A stretch of DNA of 63,357 nucleotides from Desulfurococcales archaeon (GTDB lineage: Archaea > Thermoproteota > Thermoprotei_A > Sulfolobales > Desulfurococcaceae): assembly GCA_027002875.1 (NCBI GenBank), contig JALWZC010000058.1, positions 1 through 63,357 on the forward strand, read 5' to 3'. Made by a program: the position numbers and the translations under genes. Shown piece by piece: positions 21,040 through 45,964 of this stretch (its first letter is position 1; each line of letters starts with the position of its first letter). The notes under the pieces were generated by a model. That model was not told where the DNA came from and did no database searches. It saw only the letters and a list, made by a program, of their open reading frames with translations.

Positions 21040-21804
21040 TTATCCCCCCTGTTTTCCTAGGTTGTATTTTTCTATTTGTAGCCCATTGATGTCGAATACC
21101 ACGTATTCCGTGTTTTGTATTATACTATTATCCACGGTTAACTCACAAACATACGGTTTACTCGGTGATGATGAGTAATTCATTAAAACCTTACTATACA
21201 GCTCCATTCCGTCCCTTGAAACCATTGTTATTCTTACTGGTGCGTCTATTACTATGTTCGAGTATATGATACAATATATTCTCGAAGTATTACCTATTCT
21301 GTTAATCCTAATATCGCGTATGTATAGGTCTATGTAGTTTCCGAATGTTGTTATGTTTAGTAATGTTGTTGTTTGGGTAAAGGATACTAGGTTTGTATTA
21401 ACATGTATAAGCATCACAATTTCTTCATTGAGTATATCCTTTGTTAAGGGAAACTCAATGCTAACCGGATAATTTATCAAATCCTTAGACATGTTTTTGA
21501 ATACTATGTGTGCTAGCGATTTATTCATCAATAATAGATCGATAATGGGACCTGCTGCGCTGGATTTCTTCGTCCACGTAATATTCAGCTCGATCAACGC
21601 TTTAAAGAATACTTGCTTTCCCATCCTCGTGATTGTAATATTCTTTGGACGATAACTTATCCTAGCAGAGGATAGGGAGTTTATCATGGGTATGAATTGA
21701 TTATTGAAATCCCTAACCATTTCGAAGAGTATGTATAAACCCGCTATGTAGAGTACAACGCCTATAATGATAATAGATGAATAAATAACTCTACTATAAG
21801 CCAT
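21040..21804 (-). CDS. N-terminally anchored extracytoplasmic protein
   Basis: One N-terminal TM helix (IYSSIIIIGVVLYIAGLYILF) followed by a beta-rich, N-x-S/T-rich domain. Confidence 0.5.
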   Translation of the reverse strand: MAYSRVIYSSIIIIGVVLYIAGLYILFEMVRDFNNQFIPMINSLSSARISYRPKNITITRMGKQVFFKALIELNITWTKKSSAAGPIIDLLLMNKSLAHIVFKNMSKDLINYPVSIEFPLTKDILNEEIVMLIHVNTNLVSFTQTTTLLNITTFGNYIDLYIRDIRINRIGNTSRIYCIIYSNIVIDAPVRITMVSRDGMELYSKVLMNYSSSPSKPYVCELTVDNSIIQNTEYVVFDINGLQIEKYNLGKQGG

Positions 21805-21918: not shown

Positions 21919-23127
21919 TTGATAATATTGTCTAGAGAACTCGGTGGTTTAGATAGAGTAATTACAAATATTATCGCGACTACTTCATCAAACACTTTAA
22001 CTAGTATGGATAATGATCTAGGAGCTTTTACACTTCAAGATTTTACGGAAGAATTGGAGATTAGTGGGGGTAAGGCGGGACTCACAGTTATTAACGGGTT
22101 TGATAAAGGCGATTTATCAGGTGTCATGGGGGTTGATAGTAGTAGTAGGTTTATAGATACACCATACTTCTTCCTAGGAATCGGTAGTGTTTCAGTATAT
22201 AACCGAGTTTTAAGAACCGGTTTTGACTGTCCGGATATTTACGGGGTAATATATGGGTCCCGAAGAAGTGGATGTGAGTGGCTGCTGGTTATTGGGAATG
22301 GTTTAGATAAGGATGGGCGGTTTCTAGAGCAAGTAGTGACTCGTAACCCTGCAGGATACCCCTATACTGCTGGGTATAATCGTTTAATGGCTTTAAACGA
22401 GTTAAGGCTAAGGCTTGAATCATATGCTTTAAACCATATAGTTGATGATTATGGGAGGATTATACTTGTCGACGGCCCCATTTACCATATACCATCGATC
22501 TTCTCTGTTTATCTGAGGGTAGATAGGTATAAAAGTGAATCACTTAGGAAATACTATGAATCATGGAGGATCCTCTTACGAGAGAGAATCAATGCTTTAA
22601 ACAAGTTAGTAGGAAAGGGGTTTAGGATACTTGGTATTGTAAAAAGACTCGAATATTCAACAATTCTCTCCCGTATTGATCCATTAAATATTCTAAGAAG
22701 AAATGCACGGATCAATGATTACACGTACTTGTCAATAGTAGCTAATAATATAGCTGGTAAAGGAGGAGCTAAACCCTTCATCCTAGGCTCCTTCAAATAC
22801 CATAACAAGGAGATTATAGGTGAACTCCCGGAGAGGATCGGGTACTATGTAGGGCTTCCGCGGAGAAGAGAGGCTAGAAATAGTAGCAACTACGTCTTTT
22901 ACAGAGCTGAGCTTCTCGAAAATGATCCGGAGCTGTTAAACATTGTTTTAACTGATAGTCTCGGCAGCGGGGCATTACTGCCGTTAACCATCCTACTAGT
23001 CGATAGTAGGGCTAAAAAATTATCTGGCGGTTTAAGGAACTATTTATTGAGGCTTATTGAGAATAAGGGTATACCGTTAACATACGATATGATGCGTTCT
23101 ATCGAGGGACTATATAGTGGATGGTAG
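21919..23127 (+). CDS. nurA: NurA-like 5'-3' nuclease
   Basis: NurA-type acidic motifs VMGVDSSSRF and ILVDGPIYH, plus LGIVKRLEYS and LLVDSRAKKL. The gene overlaps the downstream HerA-like gene by 11 nt. Confidence 0.6.
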   Translation: MIILSRELGGLDRVITNIIATTSSNTLTSMDNDLGAFTLQDFTEELEISGGKAGLTVINGFDKGDLSGVMGVDSSSRFIDTPYFFLGIGSVSVYNRVLRTGFDCPDIYGVIYGSRRSGCEWLLVIGNGLDKDGRFLEQVVTRNPAGYPYTAGYNRLMALNELRLRLESYALNHIVDDYGRIILVDGPIYHIPSIFSVYLRVDRYKSESLRKYYESWRILLRERINALNKLVGKGFRILGIVKRLEYSTILSRIDPLNILRRNARINDYTYLSIVANNIAGKGGAKPFILGSFKYHNKEIIGELPERIGYYVGLPRRREARNSSNYVFYRAELLENDPELLNIVLTDSLGSGALLPLTILLVDSRAKKLSGGLRNYLLRLIENKGIPLTYDMMRSIEGLYSGW

Positions 23128-25183
23128 AGAACTTATCAGCAGCTTAGAGGAGAAGGCTAGGAAGGCTAGGGAGATCGCTGAAGAATACGGAGAAATCATT
23201 GGATGGGTTTCTAGGACAAGCCCCTCCATAATAAGTGAGGAGGGAGGTATTGTAGTATTCGACATCGACCCAGAGATTTATTTCGGCTTTTTCGAAGAAC
23301 TGGGTAGTGCTGGTAGCTATTTAGCGGTAGTCGATATAAAATCGCTGAATATTGTAAGTTTGAGGATTATCAGTGTAGAGCGTAGAGATATATTAGCCGA
23401 GCTAGACCTTCCAGACCTAAGTGTTTCATCGCCGGGAAAAGACCTCTACGGATTATTAACTAGGACAAGGGTGAAAGCTAAGCCCCTACTATCCTATGAT
23501 CCCTTTAATGACGTTGTAAGTATCGCTAATTACGTAATCGAGCCCCAATCCCCAGTCATTAGGCCTCTCAACGAGAAGGTTATCCAGAAAATACTTGGAC
23601 TACCAACTAGCGGCGTATTCATCGGTTATCCAACTGTTGGAGATAAGCCTATCTTCGATCTGAAAGCACACTTATTCGTCCCCCTAAAAGCCTATTATCA
23701 ACACATGATCGTTTTAGGCACAACAGGTTCAGGTAAAACAACCCTTCTAAAAAACATGATCTCCTCGTTAGCTAGTGGTTATAAGCTTAGTGATAATAAG
23801 ATATCCCTCGTAGTAATGGATCCTAATAGGGACTATGTGACTCTTCCCTTAAAGCCTCACTACGAGTTTAGTGAGGGTTTGGATGTAGAGTTAGAGGAGA
23901 AAATGATCAATAATATTAAGGGTAGAGTTGATAAGCCCAACGGCTTAGTCTTGATTATTCCTATAACTAGCATGGTGTTGGAGAGACTAGATGTTAAGGA
24001 TACTAGTTGGGCTAAGGCTTTAATGGATATAGCCGATGAATATTTTGAATCAACCTATAAATCGATCGCTGAGAAAATGGGGTGGAAAACAAGCATTATT
24101 GATAAACACGTGTATGAGGAGCCTGGCGATAACGATGGGAAGCCTCTGAGGTTTGTTGATTACAAGGTAAGCATAGTTTACGAGGATAATTCTAGGGATA
24201 TAGTAGAGTTATTCCTAATACCCTACGGTTTCAGGTTTAACGAGCTAAGTGTTAGGGAGTTTATATCGCTGAATCCCTATTTTACTCGGAACGCTAAGGA
24301 TAGCTTGTCTCGTTTATTGAACTATTTGAATAGTAGGGGTGTAGTTATTGAATCACTGCAGGAGCTATATGATGCTCTTAGAGAAGCAAGGTATAGGATC
24401 GATGAGCGGCGCGGACAGAAGCAGAATAAGCCTAGTATTACTAATCCAAGGATTAATCTAATTGTTGATTTGATCAAAGAACTCGCGGTTCATAAGTCAA
24501 CGCTTGAAAATATGATGAGACAGATCGGTTCACTCATAGACACGGGCCTCTTCGACCTCGAGATCCCCGGAGGTAGGGGGCCTGATAAGTATTTACGTGA
24601 GCCGCCGATCAACTCGATCCTTGAGAAGCACTTTTCATTATTTAAGGGTTATCCTATAGTGGTAGACCTCGAGTATCTGCAGGAGAATACCTTTACTGAT
24701 CCCGAGAAAGTGATTAGTATAGCTGCCTTCCGCATACTCAACAATATTTTCCACTGGAAGCTTGAAAGGACTAGGATGAGGATTACTAGTCAGCCAGTCC
24801 TTATCTTGATTGATGAAGCCCATAGGTTCTTCCCTTCTAGGGGTGGTGGTAGGGAGGAGTATATCGAGCATATTTCCAGCATGATTGATCGTATTGCTAG
24901 GCTTGGACGCGCTCGGAGGCTGGGGTTAATATTCTCCACGCACTCTCCACGCGATGTACATGATATAATACTGCAGCTTGCCAATACTAAGATTATACTC
25001 CGTATGGATAAGAGCCAGGTTAGCAGCTTGGATATCCCCTCGGAGTATAGGGAGCTTGTTTTGAGAGCTGGTGATCGCGTAGGAGTTGTTAAGAGTCATA
25101 CATTAAGGATTGGCTACATGTCTTTTAGAACCCCCCTACCCCTAGCTGGTCATTATGACTTATCAGCTCTCAGCTTTCCCTAA
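23117..25183 (+). CDS. herA: HerA-like (DUF87) hexameric ATPase/translocase, long form
   Basis: Walker A VLGTTGSGKTTLL, Walker B PVLILIDEAHRF, and the HerA C-terminal block GLIFSTHSPRDVHDIILQLANTKIILRM. About 330 aa separate the Walker motifs. Confidence 0.75.
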   Translation: MDGRELISSLEEKARKAREIAEEYGEIIGWVSRTSPSIISEEGGIVVFDIDPEIYFGFFEELGSAGSYLAVVDIKSLNIVSLRIISVERRDILAELDLPDLSVSSPGKDLYGLLTRTRVKAKPLLSYDPFNDVVSIANYVIEPQSPVIRPLNEKVIQKILGLPTSGVFIGYPTVGDKPIFDLKAHLFVPLKAYYQHMIVLGTTGSGKTTLLKNMISSLASGYKLSDNKISLVVMDPNRDYVTLPLKPHYEFSEGLDVELEEKMINNIKGRVDKPNGLVLIIPITSMVLERLDVKDTSWAKALMDIADEYFESTYKSIAEKMGWKTSIIDKHVYEEPGDNDGKPLRFVDYKVSIVYEDNSRDIVELFLIPYGFRFNELSVREFISLNPYFTRNAKDSLSRLLNYLNSRGVVIESLQELYDALREARYRIDERRGQKQNKPSITNPRINLIVDLIKELAVHKSTLENMMRQIGSLIDTGLFDLEIPGGRGPDKYLREPPINSILEKHFSLFKGYPIVVDLEYLQENTFTDPEKVISIAAFRILNNIFHWKLERTRMRITSQPVLILIDEAHRFFPSRGGGREEYIEHISSMIDRIARLGRARRLGLIFSTHSPRDVHDIILQLANTKIILRMDKSQVSSLDIPSEYRELVLRAGDRVGVVKSHTLRIGYMSFRTPLPLAGHYDLSALSFP

Positions 25184-25762
25184 CCCCTTGTAGACATGTA
25201 TTATCCTCTGTATTAACGTTACAAGCGATAGTATGAGTAACGTGTAGACAATGATCAAGGATAGTAGGAATGAGAACTTGTATGCTACGGCTGCAATTAT
25301 TAACATTAATATTCTCTCTGCTCTTTCAATTAATCCTACTCCCTCCATCTTGACGCCTAGCGATTCGCCACGAGACCTTGTATAGCTTATGAGGAAGGAT
25401 ACTATTATCAATGATACCACTAGTTCGTCCTGGAATTCTAGGTATTTGAAGGAATATATTAAGAACGCATCATTTATTCGATCAGTGGTTGAATCTAGGA
25501 ATGCTCCGAACCTTGATGTTTTCCCAGTTAAGCGGGCTACTGCACCATCTAGTGCATCCATTAAGCCCATTAATCCTATGAAGACTATGTAGAGTATTAT
25601 CGACTTATACTGGTAGATCGAGTATAATGCTAGGAATCCGAATATTAGTGATGAGAGCGTTATAGTATTAGGGCTTACTCCTATTGACGCTAGCGCCGAG
25701 GCTAACGGTCTGAATAATAATGCGAATATCTTCCTAAACCTTGTTAGCAACTCTTCATGCAC
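25163..25762 (-). CDS. CDP-alcohol phosphatidyltransferase
   Basis: DALDGAVARLTGKTSRFGAFLDSTTDRINDA equals the D-G-x2-A-R-x8-G-x3-D-x3-D signature. Multiple TM helices. Confidence 0.8.
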   Translation of the reverse strand: MHEELLTRFRKIFALLFRPLASALASIGVSPNTITLSSLIFGFLALYSIYQYKSIILYIVFIGLMGLMDALDGAVARLTGKTSRFGAFLDSTTDRINDAFLIYSFKYLEFQDELVVSLIIVSFLISYTRSRGESLGVKMEGVGLIERAERILMLIIAAVAYKFSFLLSLIIVYTLLILSLVTLIQRIIHVYKGLGKAES

Positions 25763-26592
25763 AACTCCTTCATTAATAATGCATCGTGTTCCAATACGGG
25801 GCTTTCACTAATGAAGACCCCTATTACGCCAGTATTACATAGTGCTTTACAGATTATTTCATAGTCCGGTCCGTATGGTTCGGTTAGAGTATGGTGTTTT
25901 ATCTCACCACCATTTCCGTATTCTATTTTTGAGAAATGCATGTGGAGTGGTTTAACATATTTTGATCCGAGATTTGACTCGATGTAATCTATTACTTTTA
26001 AAACGTCATCAATATTTTTCGGGAACAATCCGTGATTTCTAGCATATAAATGTGCCCAGTCTATTATAGGCCTAGCCTTATTGATCCTTGATGACATTTC
26101 TACAACCTCTTCTAAACTACCAATTTGTTTAACTTTACCGGAAACCTCCGGTCCAAGCCATACGTTCTTCTCCTCTGCAATCACCGATGCTTTCTCTAAG
26201 TTCTCCACAATCATCATTAGGGCCTCCCGTCTGGATTGGTGCCCGGTAGTATAGCCAGGGTGAAATACGACGAGCCATGCACCCATCCAGCTCGCTGCGT
26301 TTATTGAATGTATTATCCTGTTAATGCTTCTCGAAACAACGTCTCTTCGAGGACTTGCAAGATTGATATAATAGGGAGCGTGTAGGCTTAACTTAACATT
26401 ATATCTTCTCGCTTCTATACCCAAAAGCTCGGCTTTTTCTTTATCGATCCTTACCCCCCTTACGGCTTCGTATTCTATTGCTTCAAGACCCATAGATTTC
26501 AAGAATGCGGGTGCTTTCATTATGGGTTGACTTTTTAATGCTAGAGGTTTTCCAGCTGTACCATAAATAAACTTCTTCAAGAAAACCAGCAC
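25744..26592 (-). CDS. AP endonuclease family 2 (endonuclease IV-like) TIM-barrel protein
   Basis: Metal-ligand blocks occur in Endo IV order: LHAPYYINLA, VVFHPGY, LGPE, IDWAHL, LHMHFS, FISE. Confidence 0.6.
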   Translation of the reverse strand: MLVFLKKFIYGTAGKPLALKSQPIMKAPAFLKSMGLEAIEYEAVRGVRIDKEKAELLGIEARRYNVKLSLHAPYYINLASPRRDVVSRSINRIIHSINAASWMGAWLVVFHPGYTTGHQSRREALMMIVENLEKASVIAEEKNVWLGPEVSGKVKQIGSLEEVVEMSSRINKARPIIDWAHLYARNHGLFPKNIDDVLKVIDYIESNLGSKYVKPLHMHFSKIEYGNGGEIKHHTLTEPYGPDYEIICKALCNTGVIGVFISESPVLEHDALLMKELCMKSC

Positions 26593-26616
26593 CCCTCGAG
26601 GTTTGTCTAGAGGATT

Positions 26617-28011
26617 CTATAGGAGTGCTCTCTCTATAGATTTGAATAAGTCTCTACATGGTCGTTTATCATTTATTCTCGTTGATACAATGTATCCATA
26701 ATAATTTATAAGTCCACACATATGCATAGTACGCGGATCGATGTATTCACCGTTTACTGCTAATCTATCGGGATATATTGTTTCAGCGGGCACAATAGCT
26801 CTACTTAAATAAGCCTTCCTTAACTCGGATAGTTCGGCGTAGAATTGTCTCTTGGAGCAATCATCACATATTGGTATAGCGGAGTAATATAATGATACAA
26901 CCTGTCCTGTAAAGGATTCTGCGTCGATCACTCTCGGATTGAACACTTTAAAATACGTTGATAAATCTCTTGAAACATATATTTCTCTCAGAAAACCTAT
27001 TCTCCCACCGGATATAGTTATATTTGTTATTAATGATTGCGCATTATCAACTGTGATCTCGTTAACCGCTGTCCGGACTCTATCCGCGTTTATCATCCTA
27101 TAGAGGTTCTTTAACCCTCTAGACTTTATCATTGCTTCAATTAGTTCTGGTATATTGATCAGTAGCTGTGTAAACTTAGTTGGTTTGCTGTACTTATCGA
27201 TTATTTGTAGTAAGTGTGAGTTCACTAATTCTAATTCGTTACGTATTTTCAAGATACGCCCTTTAACTGCTCGAAGCTTAGCCATAACATTTTCGCTGCG
27301 AATATGATCCCAAAATTCGGGAGGTGCATTGTCCAGAAGATAGTTTATCATTAATAGTAGTGCTTTATATTCATCGATCAATCTTTCAAGCTTGCCTTTA
27401 ACCGCTATTAGCTGCGATACTATTCTAGCTTCAAGTACTGGGATAACTATTCTCTTAATCCTCCATTCTTGAAATGAAACCGTATCCTTCATGTTATCTC
27501 TCTTACCAGCAATGTTAAGGATTAGGTTGAGGAGATTGTTAGGTATTTCACTATCAACGAGTATTGTTGAAAAACTTCCTTCCTCAACCATGTTAAAATA
27601 TATGTCAAAGATACCGATCATTTTAAGCCATGCATAAAGCCTTGCATGAATCGAAGTACTTGTTGTTTTAGAGACTAATGCGATAATCGTGAATGTTTTA
27701 CCGCGGAAGTAGCTAAGCCTTGATAATAAATACAATGTTAAGCCTAGATCATATCCATAAAGAGTATCTACGAGGAATACTATATGATCATCCATTAACT
27801 GCAGAGGCTTAAGGTATGTCTCACCGAGTTTATAGTACTGCTTTAAAACGGAGAGCTCAATGTTGTCGAGTACTCTACCACTACGTAATGGTAGATCGTC
27901 TACAATTACTTGTCTTTGGTGCTCAAGGCTTTTTTTCTGTTTCCTCGTAATTACTATAGAGTTGTTTGGTATAAGCCCCCTATTAACAACCGAATCATAA
28001 ACAATGTACAC
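26617..28011 (-). CDS. Hypothetical protein (464 aa), third gene of the AT-rich operon
   Basis: Long ORF 4 nt downstream of the previous gene. No P-loop or catalytic motif recognised. Central coiled-coil-like region and C-terminal Cys residues (CDDC ... C ... C). Confidence 0.55.
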   Translation of the reverse strand: MYIVYDSVVNRGLIPNNSIVITRKQKKSLEHQRQVIVDDLPLRSGRVLDNIELSVLKQYYKLGETYLKPLQLMDDHIVFLVDTLYGYDLGLTLYLLSRLSYFRGKTFTIIALVSKTTSTSIHARLYAWLKMIGIFDIYFNMVEEGSFSTILVDSEIPNNLLNLILNIAGKRDNMKDTVSFQEWRIKRIVIPVLEARIVSQLIAVKGKLERLIDEYKALLLMINYLLDNAPPEFWDHIRSENVMAKLRAVKGRILKIRNELELVNSHLLQIIDKYSKPTKFTQLLINIPELIEAMIKSRGLKNLYRMINADRVRTAVNEITVDNAQSLITNITISGGRIGFLREIYVSRDLSTYFKVFNPRVIDAESFTGQVVSLYYSAIPICDDCSKRQFYAELSELRKAYLSRAIVPAETIYPDRLAVNGEYIDPRTMHMCGLINYYGYIVSTRINDKRPCRDLFKSIERALL

Positions 28012-28015
28012 TATC

Positions 28016-29152
28016 CTACCACCATGATGATAGGAGGAGCTTCCCAGCTGCTAATAACTCCCTAGTTTTATTAACCACATTCTCCGATTCTTTGCTTAAG
28101 AATTCTAGTCTCCTTATTAATTTATCCCAAAGTTCATAGACGTCTTTAATCTTGTAATATTTTAATAGTTCCAGGTGTTTTTCAACGCTATATATTTTTA
28201 GGATCACTTCGCTAGATTCTAGATCCCCTATTTTGGTGTTTCCATCTATGTATAAATTGTTTCTATTATAGAATTGTATTTTGCCTATGTCTTTGCGGGA
28301 TAAATTCATCCTTGCTAAGACCGATTCTACTACTGGAATTGCTACGGATAATAAAGTCTTCGTTACTTCTGCGGCGATATTGGTTTCAAGGATTTGATCG
28401 TCGTTAAAATAAACGTAGAACTTGAGTTCTCTTATAGAGTACTCTGTCAGTTTTAATTTTACGGCAAGGATTGTCGAGTCTTTGTGTTTTAATACGAAGT
28501 CTGTTGGAATAATTGACGCCGGGTTTATCCTTATATTCAAACCTGTTAGAGTCTCAGCTTTTTCAACATTAATTGCCTCCTCATCGTAATCCATACTTAT
28601 AATAGTAGGTGATCCGTGAATTACTAGTTCTAAGTACTCACCGTATTTAAACGTTAAAACATCCTGCTCTATATTAGGAGTGATAGTTCTGCCTTCGGAG
28701 ATCATCTTTACGCTTAGGGCTATTGGAGGGTATTTTTTGTATAGGATTAGAGCGAGTACTAGTAGAACTGTAGAAACGATTACTTGCGAAATGAGATTAC
28801 CCGATATCGAATCTGTTATAGCTAGAATTAACGGCGTTATTATTGATAATACAAGAAGCCCCGACACGTATATCGTTGAACCCTTTATCATACCAGTAAA
28901 TAGTCTTTCTCTTAATACTGACGCTCCAAATAATGTGATCAGTAATAACTGTACTAACGCGTCTACTAACTGTGGAGTAATTACTCTACCTAGAAATATT
29001 CGGTCTAGTATCCATGAATAGAGTTGGTACGCGTTTATTCCCAGTACTCCCCCATAATATATCGCTATTGATAACGCAATAAGAGCAACTATTATACCAC
29101 TCCTTAAAGCTATGGAAACCTCCGGGTAGAGTAGCTTACTGATGTAACCCAT
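28016..29152 (-). CDS. Membrane protein (378 aa), 4-5 N-terminal TM helices plus a soluble domain
   Basis: Hydrophobic helices fill the first ~150 aa, followed by a ~230-aa soluble part ending in a helical K/E/L-rich tail. Confidence 0.55.
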   Translation of the reverse strand: MGYISKLLYPEVSIALRSGIIVALIALSIAIYYGGVLGINAYQLYSWILDRIFLGRVITPQLVDALVQLLLITLFGASVLRERLFTGMIKGSTIYVSGLLVLSIITPLILAITDSISGNLISQVIVSTVLLVLALILYKKYPPIALSVKMISEGRTITPNIEQDVLTFKYGEYLELVIHGSPTIISMDYDEEAINVEKAETLTGLNIRINPASIIPTDFVLKHKDSTILAVKLKLTEYSIRELKFYVYFNDDQILETNIAAEVTKTLLSVAIPVVESVLARMNLSRKDIGKIQFYNRNNLYIDGNTKIGDLESSEVILKIYSVEKHLELLKYYKIKDVYELWDKLIRRLEFLSKESENVVNKTRELLAAGKLLLSSWW

Positions 29153-29167
29153 ATCTCTTTATTCCTC

Positions 29168-30568
29168 CTATTTACCAGGGGGTTTCTCCGCTATGCTTAC
29201 TATATTATCTCTCACTAGACGCCTTATAAAATATGTATAGGAGATCTCTGTTTCTATAGTCCAATTTCGCTTCTCTTGATCATAGTTTGTATATGGAATG
29301 CTTCTCTTCAATGATTTTGAACCTATATAGTTTATAATGAAGGGGTGATGTTCTAAGTATCCTTCTTCGACGAGTTTTCTCTCTATAAACCTGTATATTG
29401 TGTCTTCGTGATTAATTGTCTTGTATAGACCTATTAACAGAGTATATTTATCGTTGTTTAAGACTGGTTTATCGGCCTCTTCGATTGTTAAATTACCATA
29501 TTTCTCGTACACATAGTTTGTAGCATAATACATGCCGATAGTTGGAGCAAGCTGTTTAAAGAAGTTAATTACCTTGTTGAAGTACTCCTTATTATTGAAT
29601 GATAGAAGTATTATAACGGGTTCGCCGAGTATTTCGATGAAATATTTCGATGATAAATATATGCCCTTAATTAATGATTGGTTATTCACATGTTTCTCGA
29701 GATGCTTTTTAAGTATTTTTGACGGCAGGCTATATTTTTCCATAATACTGATAAGTTGTTTAAAAGCGTCTTGTTCATATTCTTTTATTATTATTAAGTC
29801 TATTATGTCGTAGGGCTTATACTTGTCCGGTCTGGCTATTTGTTTTGTAATATCAATAGTTTTACCTACTTCTTCATCAACTTTTTCGAATATTAATTCT
29901 AGGTCTTCTAGAGTATAACCGTTGAGTAGCCATTTAAAGTGCGTGGTGTCTGGCCTTATCGTTGTATCCGTGTTAAATTTTGGCTGGAAACGGTCGACGT
30001 CTTCGAAAAGTACCATTATTATTTCATCGCTACCGTACCATGTTTTATGGGAACTAGTCTTATTCTTGACTAGTTCTTCAAGTTCTCTCCTTATTTCTGA
30101 AACCATTGTTTCAACGTGGATAGCGGGTATATAGTAGTAAACCATTGTTCCCATGATGGATTTTGTTAATGTGTAGAAGCTTAACCATTCAATGTATGGT
30201 AGTCTATATGGTTCTACGTAGCGAGGTATGAATACGAATAAAACGTATAAACCGAGGCGGGCATAGTTCGCCTTAGCGTAGAATTTTAAGCCAAATTTAC
30301 CAAATCTCTTTAAATTCTTAACGACTGATTTTGTACTCATACCATATCTATTCCGAGCACCTGCTAAGCGAATTATCTCTCTAGCAATTGTATTATAATA
30401 CCCTACTTTATTTACACGAGTTAATAAATCTATGTAAAAACCTAGATCAGAATTATATAGTCTATTAAGTTTATCAAGTACTTCACGCCTAAACTGATCT
30501 ATCCTTGAAATGGATCCACCACGAATACTTGCTTCTAGAAATAGTTTTTGCTTAGTCATTTTAACCAC
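29168..30568 (-). CDS. Hypothetical protein (466 aa) with two HTH-like segments
   Basis: YNTIAREIIRLAGARNRYGMSTKSVVKNLKRFGKFGL and DIIDLIIIKEYEQDAFKQLISIMEKYSLPSKILKKHLEKHV each look like wHTH segments followed by beta-alpha-beta-type hydrophobic patterns, a tandem Lrp/AsnC-like arrangement. This is inference only. Confidence 0.5.
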   Translation of the reverse strand: MVKMTKQKLFLEASIRGGSISRIDQFRREVLDKLNRLYNSDLGFYIDLLTRVNKVGYYNTIAREIIRLAGARNRYGMSTKSVVKNLKRFGKFGLKFYAKANYARLGLYVLFVFIPRYVEPYRLPYIEWLSFYTLTKSIMGTMVYYYIPAIHVETMVSEIRRELEELVKNKTSSHKTWYGSDEIIMVLFEDVDRFQPKFNTDTTIRPDTTHFKWLLNGYTLEDLELIFEKVDEEVGKTIDITKQIARPDKYKPYDIIDLIIIKEYEQDAFKQLISIMEKYSLPSKILKKHLEKHVNNQSLIKGIYLSSKYFIEILGEPVIILLSFNNKEYFNKVINFFKQLAPTIGMYYATNYVYEKYGNLTIEEADKPVLNNDKYTLLIGLYKTINHEDTIYRFIERKLVEEGYLEHHPFIINYIGSKSLKRSIPYTNYDQEKRNWTIETEISYTYFIRRLVRDNIVSIAEKPPGK

Positions 30569-30684
30569 ATTTCACGATACATAATCATTATTTTATTCCT
30601 GTTTTTAAAATGCCTTCTCCTAAATTAATGATATTAATAATTCTGCCTATTAATTATCCATAGATAAATACGTGTCATAGTTTA

Positions 30685-31257
30685 GTGGTGATCTCTAATA
30701 TGGATCCTGATGAAAAACCGCGTGTCCTATATGAGGAAGAATTGTTCAAGGGTATAAGGTTTAGAGTTGTTAGGAGGAAATACCAGTATAGGGATAGGAG
30801 TTTCGAAAGGGATATCGTGCTGTTCCCACCTTCAGTAATCATTCTACCAGTACTGAGTTCACAGAAATTACTCCTCATAAAACAGTATAGAGCGCCTATT
30901 GATGATTACATCTATGAAGCCCCTGCTGGTGTTATGGAGCCAGGTGAGTCGCCGAGGGAAGCTGCTAAGAGGGAGTTAATCGAGGAGACGGGGTATACGC
31001 CTAACGAGCTAATTGATGTTGGCGAGTACTATCCAGTACCCGGTTATAGTACTGAAAAGATGCATTTATTCATAGCTAGAGGCCTGGAATATGTTGGTAT
31101 GAAGCCGGAGCCTTATGAGATCATTAAGCCTGTGGTGGTAACGGTTGACCAGGCTGTTGAAATGGTTAAGAACAACGAGATAAAGGATCTTAAGACCGTT
31201 TTCCTAGTACTATTCTACGTTCATTATATGTGGAAGAAGGATTTCGGCGAGGATTAA
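30685..31257 (+). CDS. Nudix hydrolase (ADP-ribose pyrophosphatase-like)
   Basis: Nudix box PAGVMEPGESPREAAKRELIEETGY. ATG at 30700 is an alternative start. Confidence 0.8.
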   Translation: MVISNMDPDEKPRVLYEEELFKGIRFRVVRRKYQYRDRSFERDIVLFPPSVIILPVLSSQKLLLIKQYRAPIDDYIYEAPAGVMEPGESPREAAKRELIEETGYTPNELIDVGEYYPVPGYSTEKMHLFIARGLEYVGMKPEPYEIIKPVVVTVDQAVEMVKNNEIKDLKTVFLVLFYVHYMWKKDFGED

Positions 31258-31601
31258 TGAGTAGCGACGTTGAAAGGATCAAAAAACTGCTAGATATTAA
31301 GTTATTATTTGAAGGGCCCAGCGATTGGACTACTAGGGAGTATATCGAGTTAATAGATGAGTACTTCATGGAGAGGTTACCAGTAATGCTGAATAACGTG
31401 CTTGAACCCTATGGTTTGGAAGCATCTATTATAGAAGATAGGAACGAGTGTAGTCTCGGAATAGAACTGTGCGATGAGAACACATTTATAGTGGAGATCT
31501 ATATGAGGGGTTCGAATAAACCCCTGTATCACGTAGTCTACCGGCGTAGAATTGGAGAAAATACATATGAATTTTATATGAAGCGGTTTTTAATCGCCTA
31601 A
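31257..31601 (+). CDS. Hypothetical small protein
   Basis: Track ORF is 31230..31601; ATG at 31257 overlaps the Nudix stop (TAATG), suggesting translational coupling. Confidence 0.45.
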   Translation: MSSDVERIKKLLDIKLLFEGPSDWTTREYIELIDEYFMERLPVMLNNVLEPYGLEASIIEDRNECSLGIELCDENTFIVEIYMRGSNKPLYHVVYRRRIGENTYEFYMKRFLIA

Positions 31602-31666
31602 TTAAATTTTTATTCTGTATAATTCTCCGAAATTTATAGTTTTCCTCCATTATACAATTCTGGATC

Positions 31667-31879
31667 ATGGTGCAAACATACAGATATGATCAAACACATA
31701 CTATTAAAACGGTGGCCGCAATGACGCTAAGGATCCCAATCAAGAAAACGATCACGACTCGCCTACTAACTATCGCGAATTACGCGGCCACCAAAATCGG
31801 ATTAAGAGGTGTTATAGATATGAATGGGCCTAATGAGCCAGGCGGAGACCCTATTCCAGACGACCCTGTTCCATTTTAA
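31667..31879 (+). CDS. Possible leaderless small ORF (70 aa, Pro/Asp-rich C-terminus)
   Basis: The ATG lies about 30 nt downstream of a TTTATA box (31633-31638). The region is GC-rich and may instead be non-coding. Confidence 0.2.
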   Translation: MVQTYRYDQTHTIKTVAAMTLRIPIKKTITTRLLTIANYAATKIGLRGVIDMNGPNEPGGDPIPDDPVPF

Positions 31880-31949
31880 ACTTTTTATTTAAAGATAAGG
31901 TAATTTTTTAAGATTTATTTTCCTTCTCCTTTTTCTTGGTGGTGGATTA

Positions 31950-32564
31950 TTGTCATCGCTTATCAGGGTTAGGCCTACTAAGATCGAGCTTATCAGGTTG
32001 AAGCGTAGAAGGGAGCTTGCCCGTAAGGTTTATCGTATTTTGAGGGAGAGGCTTACTATACTAGTAAACGAGTTTATGACTCGTATTCGCAGAGCTTATC
32101 ATATTCGTAAAGAGATTAACAGGGATATTCTTGATGTCTATAATGAGGCCGCGTATCTACTTGGTTTGTATGGAGGTAGTATCTACGAGTATTACGATAG
32201 CACAGCTGTTGAAAACTCTAAAGTGGTTATCGGTTTTGAGAATATTATGGGTGTCAAGTCTTACACTGCAATGATGAAGAAAGGCAAGTTTATCAACACT
32301 TATCCGGAGCTAAACGAATTCCGGGAACGTTCAATCATGCTTATTAGCCGTATCATAGAGCTTGGAAGAATTGAGCAGTCTATTAAGACCCTCGGCGTAG
32401 AGATTAATAAGACTAAGCGCAGGGTTAATGCTCTAGAGTATATTTTCATACCACGATTAACCTCGACGATTAAGTATTTACAGATGAAGTTTGAGGAGAG
32501 GGAGAGGGAGGAGAAAGCTAGGCTGAAGCGTGTAAAGAGTATGTTGGAGAAGCACCGGGGTTAA
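31950..32564 (+). CDS. atpD: A-type ATP synthase subunit D
   Basis: RPTKIELIRLKRRRELARKVYRILRERLTILVNEF and the C-terminal coiled coil are typical of the V/A-type D subunit. 204 aa. Confidence 0.8.
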   Translation: MSSLIRVRPTKIELIRLKRRRELARKVYRILRERLTILVNEFMTRIRRAYHIRKEINRDILDVYNEAAYLLGLYGGSIYEYYDSTAVENSKVVIGFENIMGVKSYTAMMKKGKFINTYPELNEFRERSIMLISRIIELGRIEQSIKTLGVEINKTKRRVNALEYIFIPRLTSTIKYLQMKFEEREREEKARLKRVKSMLEKHRG

Positions 32565-32569
32565 GAGGA

Positions 32570-32995
32570 TTGGGGGTTCGGGACGCTTATTTCGAAGATC
32601 TTGTAACACGTGTTTTGACTCGGGAGCTCAGGATTGTTAATAGGCATCTACCCTATAAACGGGTTAGTTTATGCGATCTTGAGAAGATGGATATTCCATA
32701 CATTGTGCTACGAGATGGTACAGCTCATCTAATAGATCCTCGGGAACTTGAGTATTTGACTAATTTGTTGGGAAAGGATAAGTGTAAACTACTCTTACCG
32801 ATCATAATTGAAGCCCGACAATCCCTTGGTGAAGGGACTTATATTGTAAGGGATCGAGTGGCTAAGAGGGTTATTGCGGAAATACTTGGAGTTGAATATG
32901 AGGAGGAGAAGCCCTTGATAATTTACCGGCCACATTTGTATAAGATAAGGGAAGTGCTTCCAACAACCACTACAATTATTTTCTCGCCAACATAA
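32570..32995 (+). CDS. UPF0216 / DUF61 family protein
   Basis: VNRHLPYKRVSL, YIVLRDGTAHLIDPRELEYL, LLLPIIIE and the C-terminal LPTTTTIIF match my recollection of the archaeal UPF0216 family. Confidence 0.6.
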   Translation: MGVRDAYFEDLVTRVLTRELRIVNRHLPYKRVSLCDLEKMDIPYIVLRDGTAHLIDPRELEYLTNLLGKDKCKLLLPIIIEARQSLGEGTYIVRDRVAKRVIAEILGVEYEEEKPLIIYRPHLYKIREVLPTTTTIIFSPT

Positions 32996-37738: not shown

Positions 37739-40700
37739 ATGCCTGCGCGTGGTAGGATATATAGGGTTTCAGGACCCCTCGTTATTGCTGATGCTATGAG
37801 GGGTTCTAAGGTTTATGAAGTCGTAGAAGTTGGAAGTGATAGGTTAATCGGTGAGATTATCGGTGTTGAAGGGGATAAAGCTATCATACAGGTTTATGAG
37901 GATACGACCGGGCTTAGGGTTGGAGACGAAGTATATGGTACTGGTTATCCTTTAGCGGCCGAACTAGGCCCCGGGCTTATATCATCAATCTATGATGGTA
38001 TACAGAGGCCTCTACCACTACTATGGGAGATCGCCGGCTTCTTCGTTAAGAGGGGTGTTAAAGCTGCACCACTACCTAGGGATAAGAAATGGCACTTCAT
38101 CCCTCTGGTAAAACAGGGGGATAAGGTTGGGCCTGGCGATTACCTCGGGTATGTTGAAGAAACCGAGGTTGTACGCCACTATATAATGGTTCCCCCCGAC
38201 GTGAGCGGCGAGGTTAGAGAGATCGCTCCTGAGGGTGATTATAGAGTCGATGAAGCAATAGCTAAGATAGGCGATAAAGAGGTATTAATGCTGCAGAAAT
38301 GGCCGGTTAGAAAACCTAGGCCTTACAGGGAAAAACTAGAGCCTCGAGAACCCCTAATAACGGGGCAGAGGGTAATCGATTTCTTCTTCCCTCTAGCCAA
38401 GGGTGGAAAAGCAGCAATACCGGGCGGCTTCGGTACTGGGAAGTGTGTACTTCCGGGAACGCCAGTATTACTCAGTGATGGGAGTGTAAAGATTATTGAT
38501 GAGTTATTCAGGGAAGTTAAGGGTGGAGAACCCGATCTATCCCTAGATGAGGAATTAATTGATGTTAGCAGTAGAGGATTAGAAGTCTTAGCTTTTAATG
38601 GTGAAAAATTCGTTAAGGCCCGTGTAACACATGTTTATAGAGGATATACTGATAAAGTGGTTAGGATTAAAACGGCTAGTGGTAGGGTAATAGAGGTTAC
38701 ACCAGTCCATAAACTACCAGTATTTAACCCGGACGGCTACATAGAGTTTATCGAGGCACAGAAGATCAAGCCTTCAGATTATATAGTAATACCTCGTAAA
38801 GTAATGATTAACAAAGCTGAACCCCCTATCTTGCCTCTCGAGAAACTAGGGGAGTATAGTGATGTTGTAAGCAGGGATGAAAACGTAAATAGTATTGTTA
38901 GAAGAGTTCTTAGGAGATTACCCGACTCGGAGATCCATAGACTTTCAATGGAAACGGGTTTATCATATTCAACTATTAAGACGCTAGCCTATGCTAGGCG
39001 TTCTATTCCATTCAGATTATTAGTGCAACTACGCAGAGAGTATAGCGAGATAAGTCTTCCGAAATATTTCGGTTTAAGAAGGAGTAGTAAAACAATTATA
39101 CTGCCCCGGAGAATGAGCGAGGAGTTAGCCGAGTTCTTGGGCCTCTTACTATCGGATGGCTCAGTTATTGATCGCCGCATCGTGTTCTTCAATAATGATG
39201 AAGCGTTAAGGAGAAGGTTTAAGGAATTAACTCGTATGATCTTCAATGTAGAAGCTGTGGAGAAAAAGTGTCGTACAGTTGATTGTGTCGAGATAAACTC
39301 AAGGCTTCTAGCGAGGTTTCTCCACCTACTAGGAATACCTATACGTGGGAAGTCCTACTCTGCCGAGGTTCCAGTCTACGTGTTTAAATCTCCTATCCAC
39401 ATTATTACAGGGTTTTTGAAGGGATATTATCTCGGCGATGGAGGATTCAGTGGTAATACCTTAGAATTCTATAGTGCTTCTAGGAAAATGATCAGTGGCT
39501 TAGCATACTTATTGTCAAGGTTAGGGATATTGTACTCTATCAGTAGCTCTGGCCATAGGCTTGAAATAACCGGGGTAAGTGAGCTCGAGAAATTCTATAG
39601 TTTAGTCCTACATGATGCTCCAGGGATTGGTAAGGTTGAGAAACTGTATGAATACATTGCTTCTAAGAAGAGGAATAGGCTAGTGCGGGAAACTATCCCG
39701 CTTTCACTAATGCTTCTAAGAAAGCTCTACAAGATCGCTTCTAAGCGGGAATTCGAGAAGCACGGCGTGCATATCGGTAACCAGATTTATAATAGGGAGA
39801 ACCTGTCTAGTCAAGGACTCTTAAAACTAGTGTATACTACTAGTAATTTAGTACAGGCTGAAGAGGCTTATAGTAGTGTACTAAGCCTTTTAGAGAAACT
39901 AGTACACGCATTGAAATACGTCGCATTGGATAGGGTTGAAGAAGTAAGTATTGTTGAGGAGAAGACTCCAGTATATGATATAACTGTTGAAAAATACCAT
40001 AACTTCATCGGCGGCGAGATACCGGTTATCTATCACAATACTGTTACCTTGCAGCAATTGACTAAGTGGAGTGCTGTTGATATTGCTATTTATGTTGGTT
40101 GTGGTGAGCGTGGGAATGAGATGGCTGATGCGCTTCATAGTTTTCGTAGGCTTGTTGATCCTAGGACTGGAAAAGCCCTTGTTGAGAGGAGTATATTCAT
40201 CGCTAATACCAGTAATATGCCGGTAGCTGCCCGTGAGACTAGTGTTTTCCTAGGCGCTACGCTGGGCGAGTATTTCAGGGATATGGGCTACCACGTGTTA
40301 ATGGTTGCAGACTCTACTAGTAGATGGGCTGAAGCCATGAGGGAGATCAGTGGTAGGCTTGAGGAGCTGCCCGGCGAGGAGGGTTACCCGGCATATCTAG
40401 GCTCAAGGCTTGCAAGCTTCTATGAGAGAAGCGGCTTCGTAAAAACCATCGGACAACCGGAGAGGATGGGAAGCCTAACAATTATGGGAGCCGTATCCCC
40501 CCCGGGAGCAGATTTCAGCGAGCCAGTTACACAATCGACTCTTAGAATCGTTAGAGCACTCTACGCTCTAGACGTTAACCTAGCCTATAGGAGGCATTAC
40601 CCAGCTATAAACTGGCTGATCAGCTACAGCCTCTACGTGGACAACATTACGGATTGGTGGCATAAAAACATCGATCCTGAGTGGAGGAGGATGAGGGAGA

Positions 40701-41083
40701 AAGCACTAGCTATTCTGCAGAAGGAGGCTGAGCTTGAGGAGCTCGTCCGCCTCGTTGGTGCAGAAGCATTACCGGAGGAGGATAAGTTACTGCTGGAAGT
40801 AGCACGTATGATCCGTGAGGATTTCCTACAGCAGAACGCCTTCCACGAAATAGATACTTATTGCCCCCCGAAGAAAGCCGTGCTTATGATGAAGGCTATA
40901 CTGTTATTCTACGAGCTTGGCCTTAAAGCGATAAAACAGGGTGTAACAGTTGATGATATTAGGAAGTTGAAGTCGAGGGTCTCTATTGCCCGCATGAAGG
41001 AGATCCCGAATAAGGGCTTCGAGCCCTACTTCGAGGAGTTGTTTAAGGAAATTAGAGAGGATTATAAGAAGCTAACCGGGTGA
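37739..41083 (+). CDS. atpA: A-type ATP synthase catalytic subunit A, interrupted by an intein
   Basis: The exteins give a 582-aa A subunit. P-loop GGFGTGK/T is split by the insert, followed by [10 protein letters not shown], and the C-terminal domain is conserved. Confidence 0.95.
38444..40039 (+). mobile_element. Intein (532 aa) with LAGLIDADG homing-endonuclease domain, inserted in the AtpA P-loop
   Basis: Begins with Cys (GTGK|CVLPGT) and ends VIYHN|T with Thr +1. Block B TPVHKL. LAGLIDADG motifs [14 protein letters not shown] and [15 protein letters not shown]. In frame, 1596 nt. Confidence 0.9.
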
Positions 41084-44457: not shown

Positions 44458-45696
44458 ATGCTACTCTTCCCCTATGCGTTATGGCTGCTACTCGCTACAG
44501 CCGCAATTGATAGGCTTAGTCGGTATAAACGGTACGCCTTATTAACGGGCACTGCTTCTCTAGGAATGTTTATCTATGACTCTGTAAGGATCGTTGCTAA
44601 CCAGTTGATAATACCCTACTCCCTATCCATGCTCCCATTAATTTATAACCTACCTATTTCAACGATCATCCTTTTTGATCAATTAACTGCTATTATTTCT
44701 ACTCTAATTATACTATTCTATCTCATAAGAATCTATAACGGAACCGGTGATTTCAGGCTCGGTATTTTAGTAGTTTTGATGATCTTGTTTATTTCTAGTA
44801 TTGATCTAGTTGTATGGTTGTTGTGTCTCGTCCTATTATTTGTATTATTCAAGGATTTCCTCATAGATATTTATCGTAGACTACCGGTTCTAACGTTAAT
44901 TTTACTAATCCTAGCTTTAACCATAACTGGTAGCCCGAACTTAGCCTATTTCTCAAACCTATACCTTCACAATCTCATACCAAGGACTTTTTATGATTTA
45001 TACTATGTGTTAATTCTGAGTACTTTCTCCACCATTGCACTAGTTTATGGCGGGATTAGTCCTTTAAGGAGAATGATCTATAATAGCCGGGGCTTTTTAG
45101 GATTAGTCTATCTTTCCCTTATAATGGTTTTACTTAGGGTAAATTATACATTCTTGTTAGACAGTAAACTACACCTCTACTATGGGCTAGTCTATACCAT
45201 CACAGGCTTCTATACTATTTATTCCATAGTTCTAGGTAAGGGTGAGGATTATTTGAGCGATAGGGTTTATTGGAACTCTATACCACTTCTAGTCTTTTGG
45301 GTTAGTGGCCCCGAACCAGTATCGCTCGTGTTGTTGTGGGGTTTATTGTATCTAGTGATCCTCATCGGAGAGGAAGTTCTCCCAAATAGTAATGCATTTA
45401 ACCGTTTATCTTATAGTGGAGTCTATCCCTTTCCAAGTTTCATCGCTTGGAGCGTTTTACTCGGTGTTTTAGCCTTTATTAATCCCATTCTGCTTATAAT
45501 TATTCTATTACCCTTCCTCCTTAGATCCTCTATTATTATTTATAATTTTAAGGGATTTATCAGTAGTAGTTTCCTTTATTGGCTACTTAGTTTATTTATT
45601 GGTATCATAGTTGTATTATATTATGGTTATTTCATCGTACCCTTTAGTAATTACTTTATCGAGTTTACTATTTATAGAAACATAGTGATTTGGTGA
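44458..45696 (+). CDS. Polytopic membrane protein (about 12 TM), faint NuoN/MrpD-like pattern
   Basis: 412 aa and almost entirely hydrophobic. FDQLTAIISTLIILFYLIRIY and LTITGSPNLAYFSNLY loosely recall proton-antiporter-type subunits. Weak evidence. Confidence 0.35.
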   Translation: MLLFPYALWLLLATAAIDRLSRYKRYALLTGTASLGMFIYDSVRIVANQLIIPYSLSMLPLIYNLPISTIILFDQLTAIISTLIILFYLIRIYNGTGDFRLGILVVLMILFISSIDLVVWLLCLVLLFVLFKDFLIDIYRRLPVLTLILLILALTITGSPNLAYFSNLYLHNLIPRTFYDLYYVLILSTFSTIALVYGGISPLRRMIYNSRGFLGLVYLSLIMVLLRVNYTFLLDSKLHLYYGLVYTITGFYTIYSIVLGKGEDYLSDRVYWNSIPLLVFWVSGPEPVSLVLLWGLLYLVILIGEEVLPNSNAFNRLSYSGVYPFPSFIAWSVLLGVLAFINPILLIIILLPFLLRSSIIIYNFKGFISSSFLYWLLSLFIGIIVVLYYGYFIVPFSNYFIEFTIYRNIVIW

Positions 45697-45700
45697 TAGT

Positions 45701-45964
45701 ATGGGTTTGTCAGACATCTTACTATACGTTTATATGTCGTCGCTTATAGTGTCTCCATTATTTTATTATTACATTGGGAAACTCCGCGGGGTTAATAATA
45801 GTAGGTTTGACTACGACGAGTACTTGTACACTGTTATACTTTCGAGAGCAAGAAAATTATTCAAACAATTTGAATTATTTCTCCAAAAGAACGGATTAGA
45901 CTCATACATTACGTGGTTATCGATATTCTTAATCGTTGGACTTATGGTGATGCTCGTTGATTAA
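45701..45964 (+). CDS. Small membrane protein (2 TM)
   Basis: 87 aa, tightly packed within the membrane-gene cluster. Confidence 0.4.
   Translation: MGLSDILLYVYMSSLIVSPLFYYYIGKLRGVNNSRFDYDEYLYTVILSRARKLFKQFELFLQKNGLDSYITWLSIFLIVGLMVMLVD

Follow-up and report, generated by a model that had tools for sequence, protein, structure and literature searches.

A Three-Gene Locus of Desulfurococcales

The stretch of DNA considered here, hereafter called the window, comprises positions 1 to 63,357 of contig JALWZC010000058.1 (GenBank assembly GCA_027002875.1) from a Desulfurococcales archaeon. It carries on its minus strand three closely packed genes, hereafter abbreviated as A, B and C and together as the trio, which form the subject of our analysis. 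The results point to an old operon in which the last product, C, is predicted to have the fold of tubulin and FtsZ without the motifs that bind GTP in these proteins. The three genes are listed below (ORF, open reading frame; aa, amino acids; HTH, helix-turn-helix).

29168-30568, minus strand: gene A, a 466-aa ORF encoding a predicted DNA-binding regulator, apparently a fused pair of Lrp/AsnC type (HTH plus RAM domain)
28016-29152, minus strand: gene B, encoding a 378-aa membrane protein and translationally coupled to C
26617-28011, minus strand: gene C, 464 aa, with a predicted tubulin/FtsZ-like two-domain fold and without GTP-binding motifs

In public gene calls, gene A starts at an ATG at position 30559 and encodes 463 aa, which is the probable form of the protein. 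The gaps between genes measure 15 nt from A to B and 4 nt from B to C, exactly as given in a first-pass annotation that had described three packed ORFs on the minus strand. The A-to-B gap varies between 15 and 112 nt across the loci that we compared (designated by L numbers hereafter). The B-to-C gap remains between -7 and +6 nt in 17 of 17 loci, which indicates translational coupling of the two genes throughout. By sequence, the three products are indeed unrecognisable, as that annotation had called them: searches against Pfam, NCBIfam, PADLOC, PHROGs and the sequences and profiles of PDB returned no significant match for full-length A, B or C. None of the three bears a name in any public source that we consulted, and the C family is described neither in a sequence-based survey of FtsZ (PMC9871819) nor in the papers that our literature searches found.

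Predicted Fold of Protein C

Word-indexed homologue searches retrieved only 3-5 relatives for each protein. An exhaustive search with hidden Markov models (HMMs) among 1.84 billion representative proteins defined the C family as 23 clusters at 50% identity; its members are 440-530 aa long or fragments, and none of them connects to another family. A confident structural model of C could be obtained because the family alignment was deepened in this way from four to 23 sequences: AlphaFold2, run with the 23 family representatives and no templates, gave a pLDDT of 88.6 and a pTM of 0.85, as compared with a pLDDT of 45.5 when four sequences only were used.

All the top 50 matches of this model in a Foldseek search of PDB are chains of the tubulin/FtsZ superfamily. 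The best match is CetZ2 (4b45, E 3.1e-4, TM-score 0.47 normalised to CetZ2), and the others include TubZ (4ei7, 2xka), CetZ1, gamma-, alpha- and beta-tubulin, BtubA/B, phage TubZ, OdinTubulin and the FtsZ proteins of S. aureus and M. jannaschii. The viral library BFVD gives an equivalent picture, since every named match at ranks 1-10 (several are unnamed) is a phage FtsZ, TubZ, PhuZ or tubulin, with a best E of 2.4e-5 and a sharp fall to noise after these ranks. The alignments to CetZ and FtsZ extend over 430-530 columns and take in both domains of C, while many alignments of 220-270 columns correspond approximately to the length of the N-terminal domain. The parts of C that can be distinguished in the model and in the family alignment are the following.

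27487-28011, minus strand: N-terminal Rossmann-like domain (residues 1-175), delimited from the elements of the model
27742-27765, minus strand: loop between strand 4 and helix 4 (residues 83-90, TLYGYDLG), with the family motif [SG]G[FY]D[LM]G
27298-27336, minus strand: the most conserved motif of the family, LLDxAPx[DE]LWxxAR (residues 226-238)
27061-27294, minus strand: helical insertion (residues 240-317), consisting in the model of a 35-residue helix and three short helices
26620-27000, minus strand: C-terminal alpha/beta domain (residues 338-464), as seen in the model

The N-terminal domain has six strands alternating with helices, equivalent to S1-S6/H1-H6 of tubulin and FtsZ with H1 and H2 reduced (H1 is shortened to four residues in the model). 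Beyond this domain the model contains a long helix (residues 192-227), a short loop and a short helix (residues 231-237), an arrangement resembling H7-T7-H8. The insertion of about 80 residues that separates the H8-like helix from the C-terminal domain has no counterpart in canonical tubulin or FtsZ. The C-terminal domain then follows the order strand-helix-strand-helix-strand-strand, that is S7-H9-S8-H10-S9-S10, and ends with two or three helices. The coiled-coil-like region that the first-pass annotation had noted in the centre of C corresponds to the long central helices of the model.

Two loops stand out in the conservation pattern of the family. In the loop between strand 4 and helix 4, D88 is invariant across the 23 family members and G90 is conserved in 91% of them. 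The motif LLDxAPx[DE]LWxxAR, which spans the end of the long core helix, the short loop and the short helix, shows 100% conservation of L226, D227, A229 and W234 and 95% conservation of R238. From the order of elements in the model, rather than from superposition, we infer that the first of these motifs lies at the position of the T4 loop and the second at that of T7. In tubulin and FtsZ polymers, the T4 and T7 loops lie opposite one another at the longitudinal interface between subunits. The T7 or 'synergy' loop, which follows H7, carries one or more acidic residues in the pattern NxDxx[DE], from which the motif LDxAPx[DE]LWxxAR of C differs. Taken with the structural matches, these features make it likely, as far as a predicted model can indicate, that C has a fold of the tubulin/FtsZ type. 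The earlier statement that C cannot be placed in any known family thus holds for its sequence and fails for its predicted structure.

(The C-terminal group of cysteines mentioned in the first-pass annotation is present as a CxxC...C...C cluster in the C-terminal domain, residues ~380-455 or window positions 26620-26900 on the minus strand. It is conserved in two subclades only, namely that of the window and that of L017, L020 and L030, other subclades keeping one or two cysteines, and may represent a lineage-specific structural metal site.)

Membrane Protein B

Homologues of B have been found only beside C. The protein can be divided in two parts.

28718-29152, minus strand: N-terminal membrane region (residues ~1-145), from hydropathy and the family alignment
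28019-28717, minus strand: soluble C-terminal part (residues ~146-378), from the family alignment

Hydropathy analysis of the window protein and 14 relatives indicates about four transmembrane (TM) helices within residues 1-145, a region closing with a conserved KYPP. The soluble part comprises, in this order, a beta-rich region, a ubiquitin-like segment (residues ~245-322), a helical coiled-coil tail and a conserved NWW end. Residues G180, N250, E262, K265, I308, W342 and R348 are invariant in the alignment, together with the terminal NWW. The region equivalent to the ubiquitin-like segment gives sub-threshold matches to USP7_C2 (Ubl) in L050 (1.4e-4) and L038 (0.024), so that residues ~245-322 probably form a beta-grasp or ubiquitin-like domain; a weak match to the coiled coil of GpsB was also found. 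Because positive charges follow TM2 and TM4, the C-terminal part of about 230 residues is probably cytoplasmic. This organisation agrees with the first-pass description of B as a protein with 4-5 TM helices, a soluble domain and a coiled-coil tail.

In one subclade, the tail of B ends in ...YGEI[KL] in place of NWW (L038 and L050), and C is longer (~530 aa) owing to about 70 additional residues at its C terminus. The sequences thus contain hints that the tail of B and the C terminus of C co-vary. The loci with a long C gene are as follows.

L027, 5982-7577: long C gene
L038, 1543-3153: long C gene
L041, 794-2386: long C gene
L044, 477-2081: long C gene
L050, 5971-7581: long C gene

Protein A

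The family alignment of A was split in two halves, and the profile of each half was searched against PDB sequences. The modules defined by these matches are listed below.

29864-30481, minus strand: N-terminal Lrp-like module (residues ~30-235), from PDB profile matches
29171-29863, minus strand: C-terminal Lrp-like module (residues 236-466), from PDB profile matches

For the C-terminal half the best matches are 2efn, 2pmh, 2efq and 2e7w (E 0.005-0.013), with profile positions 19-149 aligned to chain positions 2-124 in the 2efn group, a span that includes HTH and RAM. The same half matches LrpA of P. furiosus (1i1g) with E 0.0079, profile positions 20-117 being aligned to chain positions 4-99. 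The N-terminal half matches LrpA 1i1g over the HTH and linker (E 0.013) and PH0061 (2dbb) over HTH and RAM (E 0.016). We take the 150-aa transcriptional regulators of the 2efn group and PH0061 to be members of the Lrp/AsnC family. All these E-values are marginal (0.005-0.016), yet the matches are top-ranked, belong to one family for both halves and cover both subdomains.

Pfam searches of A family members yielded weak winged-helix matches at two positions, approximately 57-88 and 220-270, and matches to HTH_24 and HTH_AsnC-type models at the position of the C-terminal module in L027, L050 and L007. All the matches of the family to HTH_AsnC-type, HTH_24 and NirdL-like HTH models remain below the Pfam gathering score. 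The two halves have no similarity to each other detectable with hhalign, which found no internal repeat. On the basis of its sequence profiles, the best reading of A is a feast/famine-type (Lrp/AsnC) regulator fused into a pseudo-dimer, with HTH and RAM in each module, in line with the tandem Lrp/AsnC-like impression recorded in the first-pass annotation.

Distribution and History of the Trio

To compare the trio between genomes, we used endonuclease IV (EndoIV) as a probe of species-representative genomes and searched the 80 loci so obtained with iterated HMMs. (A scan of the genome collection with peptide patterns of C found no relatives, but these patterns are insensitive and the result is not evidence of absence.) The two genes that flank the trio in the window are the following.

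30685-31257, plus strand: NUDIX gene
25744-26592, minus strand: EndoIV gene

The full trio is present in L001, L003, L004, L005, L007, L017, L020, L027, L030, L038, L039 and L050, and also in L085, which represents a more distant lineage. It occupies the same NUDIX/EndoIV position in at least 14 related genomes, all carriers being uncultured Desulfurococcales. Their neighbourhood consists of NUDIX and the A-type ATPase operon on one side and of EndoIV, CDP-alcohol phosphatidyltransferase and HerA-NurA on the other. NUDIX and EndoIV are directly adjacent in 12 trio-less genomes and about 3.9 kb apart in carriers, a distance equal to the length of the trio; the divergent adjacency is seen in loci L006, L009, L011, L014-L016, L019, L021, L024, L029 and L031. 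The trio therefore occupies a precise presence/absence junction. The distance between NUDIX and EndoIV reaches about 6.6 kb in L027 and L050; L085 and L040 have, in addition, an oppositely oriented gene of ATPase subunit I between EndoIV and the trio (or A).

Partial states of the operon occur too. B and C are found without A in L033 (7387-9963; no A in 7 kb upstream), and A is found without B and C in L008 (1-1043) and L040 (6268-7539). The lone A of L008 lies directly upstream of EndoIV, and L008 is the sister of trio-less Thermogladius. It follows that A is not an obligate partner and that B-C constitute the functional core of the trio, with A as a separable partner. The partial states suggest that loss proceeded stepwise and that A is to some extent independent of B-C. 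Moreover, the trio is absent from the loci of Thermogladius, Thermosphaera, Desulfurococcus, Pyrodictium and Acidilobaceae; such absence, together with repeated loss, indicates that its function is dispensable.

In a neighbour-joining tree of EndoIV, all trio carriers fall in one clade except the long branch of L003, and lineages with partial states or without the trio are nested within the carrier clade. The subgroups of C in the family alignment agree with those of the EndoIV tree.

The trio has 35.65% GC as compared with 41.0% for the whole window and is the lowest-GC stretch of its size therein, 0.5% of sliding windows (standard deviation 2.2 points) being equally low. By gene, the values are 34.0% for A, 36.5% for B and 36.6% for C, against a mean of 41.1% (standard deviation 3.3) for the genes of the window. 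The first-pass annotation had seen this contrast in the right direction and overstated it with spot figures of 28-37% versus 47-53%, suggesting either acquisition or rapid evolution of the block. Acquisition is contradicted by comparison with orthologous loci: the GC of the trio lies 2-7.5 points below that of its flanks in 10 of the 10 tested, and spans 27-46% across them, following the host. The fixed junction, this host-tracking GC and the correspondence of the subclades with the EndoIV tree indicate that the trio was not recently acquired. Rapid evolution is borne out by the identity to L004, which is 23-34% for B and C and 54% for EndoIV. Low GC is, then, a property of these faster-evolving genes and not a sign of recent transfer, and the history of the trio is one of a single ancient gain, vertical descent and repeated loss.

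Four further genes of the window are equally AT-rich (33.7-35.8% GC) and likewise without a Pfam match:

21043-21804, minus strand: low-GC gene, no Pfam match
44458-45693, plus strand: low-GC gene, no Pfam match
45957-46580, plus strand: low-GC gene, no Pfam match
62297-63208, minus strand: low-GC gene, no Pfam match

Since these other low-GC genes also lack a Pfam family, low GC in this genome seems to mark genes of no known family, not foreign DNA.

Searches for features of mobile DNA around the trio were negative. No tRNA flanks it (the sole tRNA found lies at 948-1033), and neither an integrase nor the att-like or direct repeats whose presence the first-pass annotation had proposed to check were detected on its flanks. 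Viral searches found no phage or viral relatives of the trio proteins, PADLOC defence models gave no significant match and no tandem, iterated or centromere-like repeat array exists within 25000-32500. The co-occurrence of the three genes in other genomes, which was another proposed check, has been established: they form a conserved operon without a sequence family. Sensitive profile and structure searches led from the halves of A to Lrp/AsnC proteins, with marginal scores, and from C to the tubulin/FtsZ fold by predicted structure only. Overall, the interpretation of the first-pass annotation is partly supported.

Proposed Function and Alternative Explanations

We propose, with a probability of approximately 0.45, that the trio is an ancient, dispensable operon in which A is a regulator of the Lrp type, B anchors C and C is a nucleotide-independent scaffold with a tubulin fold, perhaps self-associating. 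The operon would be an old, lineage-specific chromosomal feature of one clade of Desulfurococcales, as opposed to a recently acquired island. A would most likely bind DNA and, in response to a ligand, regulate the operon and possibly also the divergent NUDIX/ATPase side. B and C, the coupled pair, would most likely form a complex, with B as a four-helix membrane anchor that keeps C at the inner side of the membrane by means of its cytoplasmic beta-grasp domain, coiled coil and tryptophan tail. C itself would be an extremely divergent version of the tubulin/FtsZ fold in which all GTP-binding signatures have been lost and two strongly conserved loops retained at the T4/T7 positions of the longitudinal interface. 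It is this combination of lost GTP signatures and conserved loops that leads us to propose C as a scaffold or structural module that works without nucleotide and may associate with itself head to tail. The role of B-C may be a membrane-associated, dispensable function such as remodelling of the envelope or cell shape, or positioning. We infer the binding of B to C, the topology of B, the self-assembly of C and the role of A from the evidence presented above.

Several observations weigh against this proposal. The loops of C have been assigned to T4 and T7 by element order, the fold assignment rests on one predicted model, and its PDB matches have TM-scores of 0.2-0.49 and sequence identities of 6-13% at a Foldseek probability of about 1, low global scores that are nevertheless consistent with the large helical insertion in C. 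A regular-expression scan found the GGGTG[ST]G motif in 0 of the 23 C family members. None of them has a P-loop or a glycine-rich T1 loop, the N-terminus of the family being 'LIIVxDxxxK', without glycines; the RGKT of C is no P-loop either, as noted in the first-pass annotation. GTP-driven dynamics, the hallmark of the superfamily, are consequently unlikely for C. The Pfam models for Tubulin/FtsZ (PF00091/PF12327) do not match any of 18 C members, E-values of up to 5 being admitted; a comparison of the C family with an alignment of eight FtsZ sequences by hhalign gives a probability of 0.1%, and the C profile finds nothing among PDB sequences. The same side of the balance holds the partial operon states, the absence of the trio from the loci of all three named genera that we compared and its dispensability. 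It could be argued, then, that the tubulin likeness of C is a coincidence of modelling and searching with a Rossmann-like protein, C being in reality unrelated (for example an enzyme, or a ligand-binder acting via conserved Asp, Lys and Tyr) and the trio non-cytoskeletal. TM-scores below 0.5 with rmsd of 5-27 A, the missing profile-level FtsZ and Pfam signals and the missing nucleotide motifs would all fit such a coincidence, as would a weak Pfam match of one C member to an 'inactive receiver' (E 0.041), one of the isolated matches that Pfam scans of individual members gave for C and a candidate that was dropped after the fold search. We nonetheless hold this explanation to be unlikely. Only the tubulin/FtsZ superfamily appears atop two independent libraries (PDB ranks 1-50 and the named matches of BFVD ranks 1-10), with no other Rossmann-type fold among those ranks; the alignments of 430-530 columns take in both domains, the order of elements agrees in the C-terminal domain too, and the model was predicted without templates.

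Other explanations accept the fold and differ in the role given to the trio, or else question its origin. B might sense a signal of the membrane or envelope and C might be a pseudo-tubulin adaptor without any role in polymers, the B-C pair sequestering or releasing the regulator A, which would then alter transcription. The ligand-type character of A, with HTH and RAM in both halves, its usual place as first gene of the trio, the lack of nucleotide motifs in C (as expected of a pseudo-enzyme scaffold) and the combination of four TM helices with a large soluble domain in B are compatible with such membrane signalling. We find it improbable, however, given that the short external loops of B leave little surface for sensing, that A persists without B-C and B-C without A, and that the strongest conservation of C, at the loops of longitudinal self-contact, would be left unexplained by a simple adaptor role. 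Even less probable is DNA positioning in the manner of TubZRC, with A as a TubR-like adaptor, C as a TubZ-like filament and B as a membrane anchor, together moving or tethering chromosomal DNA. TubZ does occur at Foldseek PDB ranks 2, 3, 6, 7, 9 and 11, phage TubZ and PhuZ occur in the viral library, and A, a winged-HTH protein encoded just upstream, recalls the tubR-tubZ gene order. Yet no iteron or centromere-like array was found near the operon (25000-32500), and TubZ functions through treadmilling driven by GTP, whereas C is devoid of GTP motifs. Moreover, A joins two Lrp/AsnC modules with RAM domains, unlike a small adaptor of the TubR type, the locus is chromosomal and syntenic and not borne by a plasmid or phage, and A and B-C can occur apart. 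Finally, the trio might be a horizontally acquired island, for example a defence system or what is left of an integrated element. No other 4 kb of the window have so low a GC, and the trio is patchily present among Desulfurococcales and has no protein in a known family. An island of this kind is nonetheless very hard to reconcile with a junction that is the same in all carriers, with subclades that agree with the tree of the flanking EndoIV and with GC that follows each host, as well as with the negative results for PADLOC models, phage or viral relatives and flanking tRNA, integrase or att-like repeats; in addition, the other low-GC genes of the window are also without a Pfam family.

The proposal of a membrane-anchored, nucleotide-independent scaffold can be extended to a bolder one, which we regard as doubtful: C would found a GTP-free branch of the tubulin/FtsZ superfamily and, with the anchor B, form a membrane-bound cytoskeleton hitherto unknown in archaea that divide by Cdv/ESCRT. 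Contacts of the Asp88 and Arg238 type at the T4/T7 interface would in this case replace GTP. Desulfurococcales are textbook examples of organisms dividing by Cdv/ESCRT. They are, to our knowledge, thought to do without relatives of tubulin, and the sequence surveys of the FtsZ/tubulin family that we know of report little or nothing in this order. Crenarchaeota classes have been described as possessing only divergent FtsZs, or none (PMC9871819), and for Sulfolobus only one FtsZ-like gene, a disrupted one, has been reported (PMC2875224). A cryptic family with the tubulin fold, if true, would widen the superfamily with members that are invisible to sequence methods, have a dedicated membrane partner and lack nucleotide motifs. 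It would also offer a natural example of the tubulin fold free of GTP, showing what the fold can do without nucleotide. The reading is directly testable, with recombinant proteins expected to be thermostable, and illustrates how low-GC 'ORFan' operons of uncultured archaea can hide ancient folds. Its reach is limited by the small size and dispensability of the C family and by the inferential nature of the functional model.

Other Features of the Window

Upstream of A there is a putative archaeal promoter:

30585-30610, minus strand: TATA-like A/T-rich boxes upstream of A, read from the sequence; putative archaeal promoter

The boxes, TTTTAAAAA at 30610-30602 and AATAAAATAAT at ~30595-30585, sit in the 116-nt divergent intergenic region common to A and the NUDIX gene. 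(A promoter and terminator scan used bacterial consensus sequences and is uninformative for an archaeal host.)

On the NUDIX side of the trio, a 123-aa ORF without a Pfam match (31230-31601, plus strand) follows NUDIX, and genes of 114 aa occupy this place in L001 and L003. Within the A-ATPase operon, a DUF61 gene (32570-32995, plus strand) is located between subunits D and I, likewise in L001 and L003. The catalytic subunit A of the A-type ATPase (37739-41080, plus strand) reaches 1114 aa owing to an intein at ~38468-40039 (residues 244-767) that includes a LAGLIDADG homing-endonuclease domain; its orthologue has an intein in L001 (1072 aa) and none in L003 (583 aa). On the EndoIV side, the genes of NurA (21919-23124, plus strand) and a HerA-like ATPase (23117-25183, plus strand) overlap by 8 nt, and the pair is convergent with the gene of the CDP-alcohol phosphatidyltransferase (25163-25762, minus strand) with an overlap of 21 nt.

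Comparison with Known Systems

CetZ (4b45, 4b46, 3zid) provides the best structural match to the model of C, is also archaeal and has the same two-domain layout with extra C-terminal helices. CetZ is a tubulin-like GTPase of cell shape found in Euryarchaeota. The canonical T1 and the GGGTGSG of T4 are present in CetZ only, whereas C has the helical insertion of about 80 residues, a dedicated membrane protein encoded beside it and no sequence similarity to the Pfam Tubulin/FtsZ models.

The type III partition system of plasmids and phages, TubZ-TubR-tubC, resembles the trio in that the top structural matches of C include TubZ and phage TubZ/PhuZ and that a winged-helix gene lies just upstream. 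It differs in that the trio has neither an iteron array nor GTP motifs, A is not of the TubR type, and the locus is chromosomal, vertically inherited and equipped with an extra membrane protein, B.

FtsZ and its tethers SepF, FtsA and ZipA share with B-C the concept of a partner that attaches a protein of the tubulin fold to the membrane; the Foldseek matches of C include FtsZ structures, without profile similarity between C and FtsZ. SepF, FtsA and ZipA bind the C-terminal peptide of FtsZ, whereas in the trio it is the membrane protein that ends in a conserved peptide (NWW); B is an integral four-helix protein unrelated to these tethers. For protein A, the equivalent comparison is with the Lrp/AsnC regulators (LrpA 1i1g, 2efn, PH0061 2dbb), to which each half aligns over HTH and RAM; A differs in being a single chain with two diverged modules, long linkers and scores below the Pfam thresholds.

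A precedent for very divergent FtsZ-like families is found in FtsZl1 and FtsZl2, which were recognised by distant similarity and genome context and predicted to function in membrane remodelling (Makarova and Koonin 2010, PMC2875224). FtsZl1 has coiled-coil and helical regions after its FtsZ-like domain, both families retain the GGGTG[ST]G loop and the neighbours of FtsZl1 include OmpA-family proteins, a vWA protein and a distinct GTPase (PMC2875224). C differs from both in lacking GGGTG[ST]G and in having a tubulin-like C-terminal alpha/beta domain, and its neighbours are the genes of A, B, EndoIV, NUDIX and the A-ATPase. The closest structures to C are those of CetZ and TubZ, and in concept FtsZ with its membrane tethers and FtsZl1/FtsZl2 come nearest; every one of these systems retains the GTP signature. 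On the strength of its predicted model, we place C within the tubulin/FtsZ fold as a new and highly divergent variant, as distinct from a demonstrated member of the GTPase family, and the trio as a new gene arrangement.

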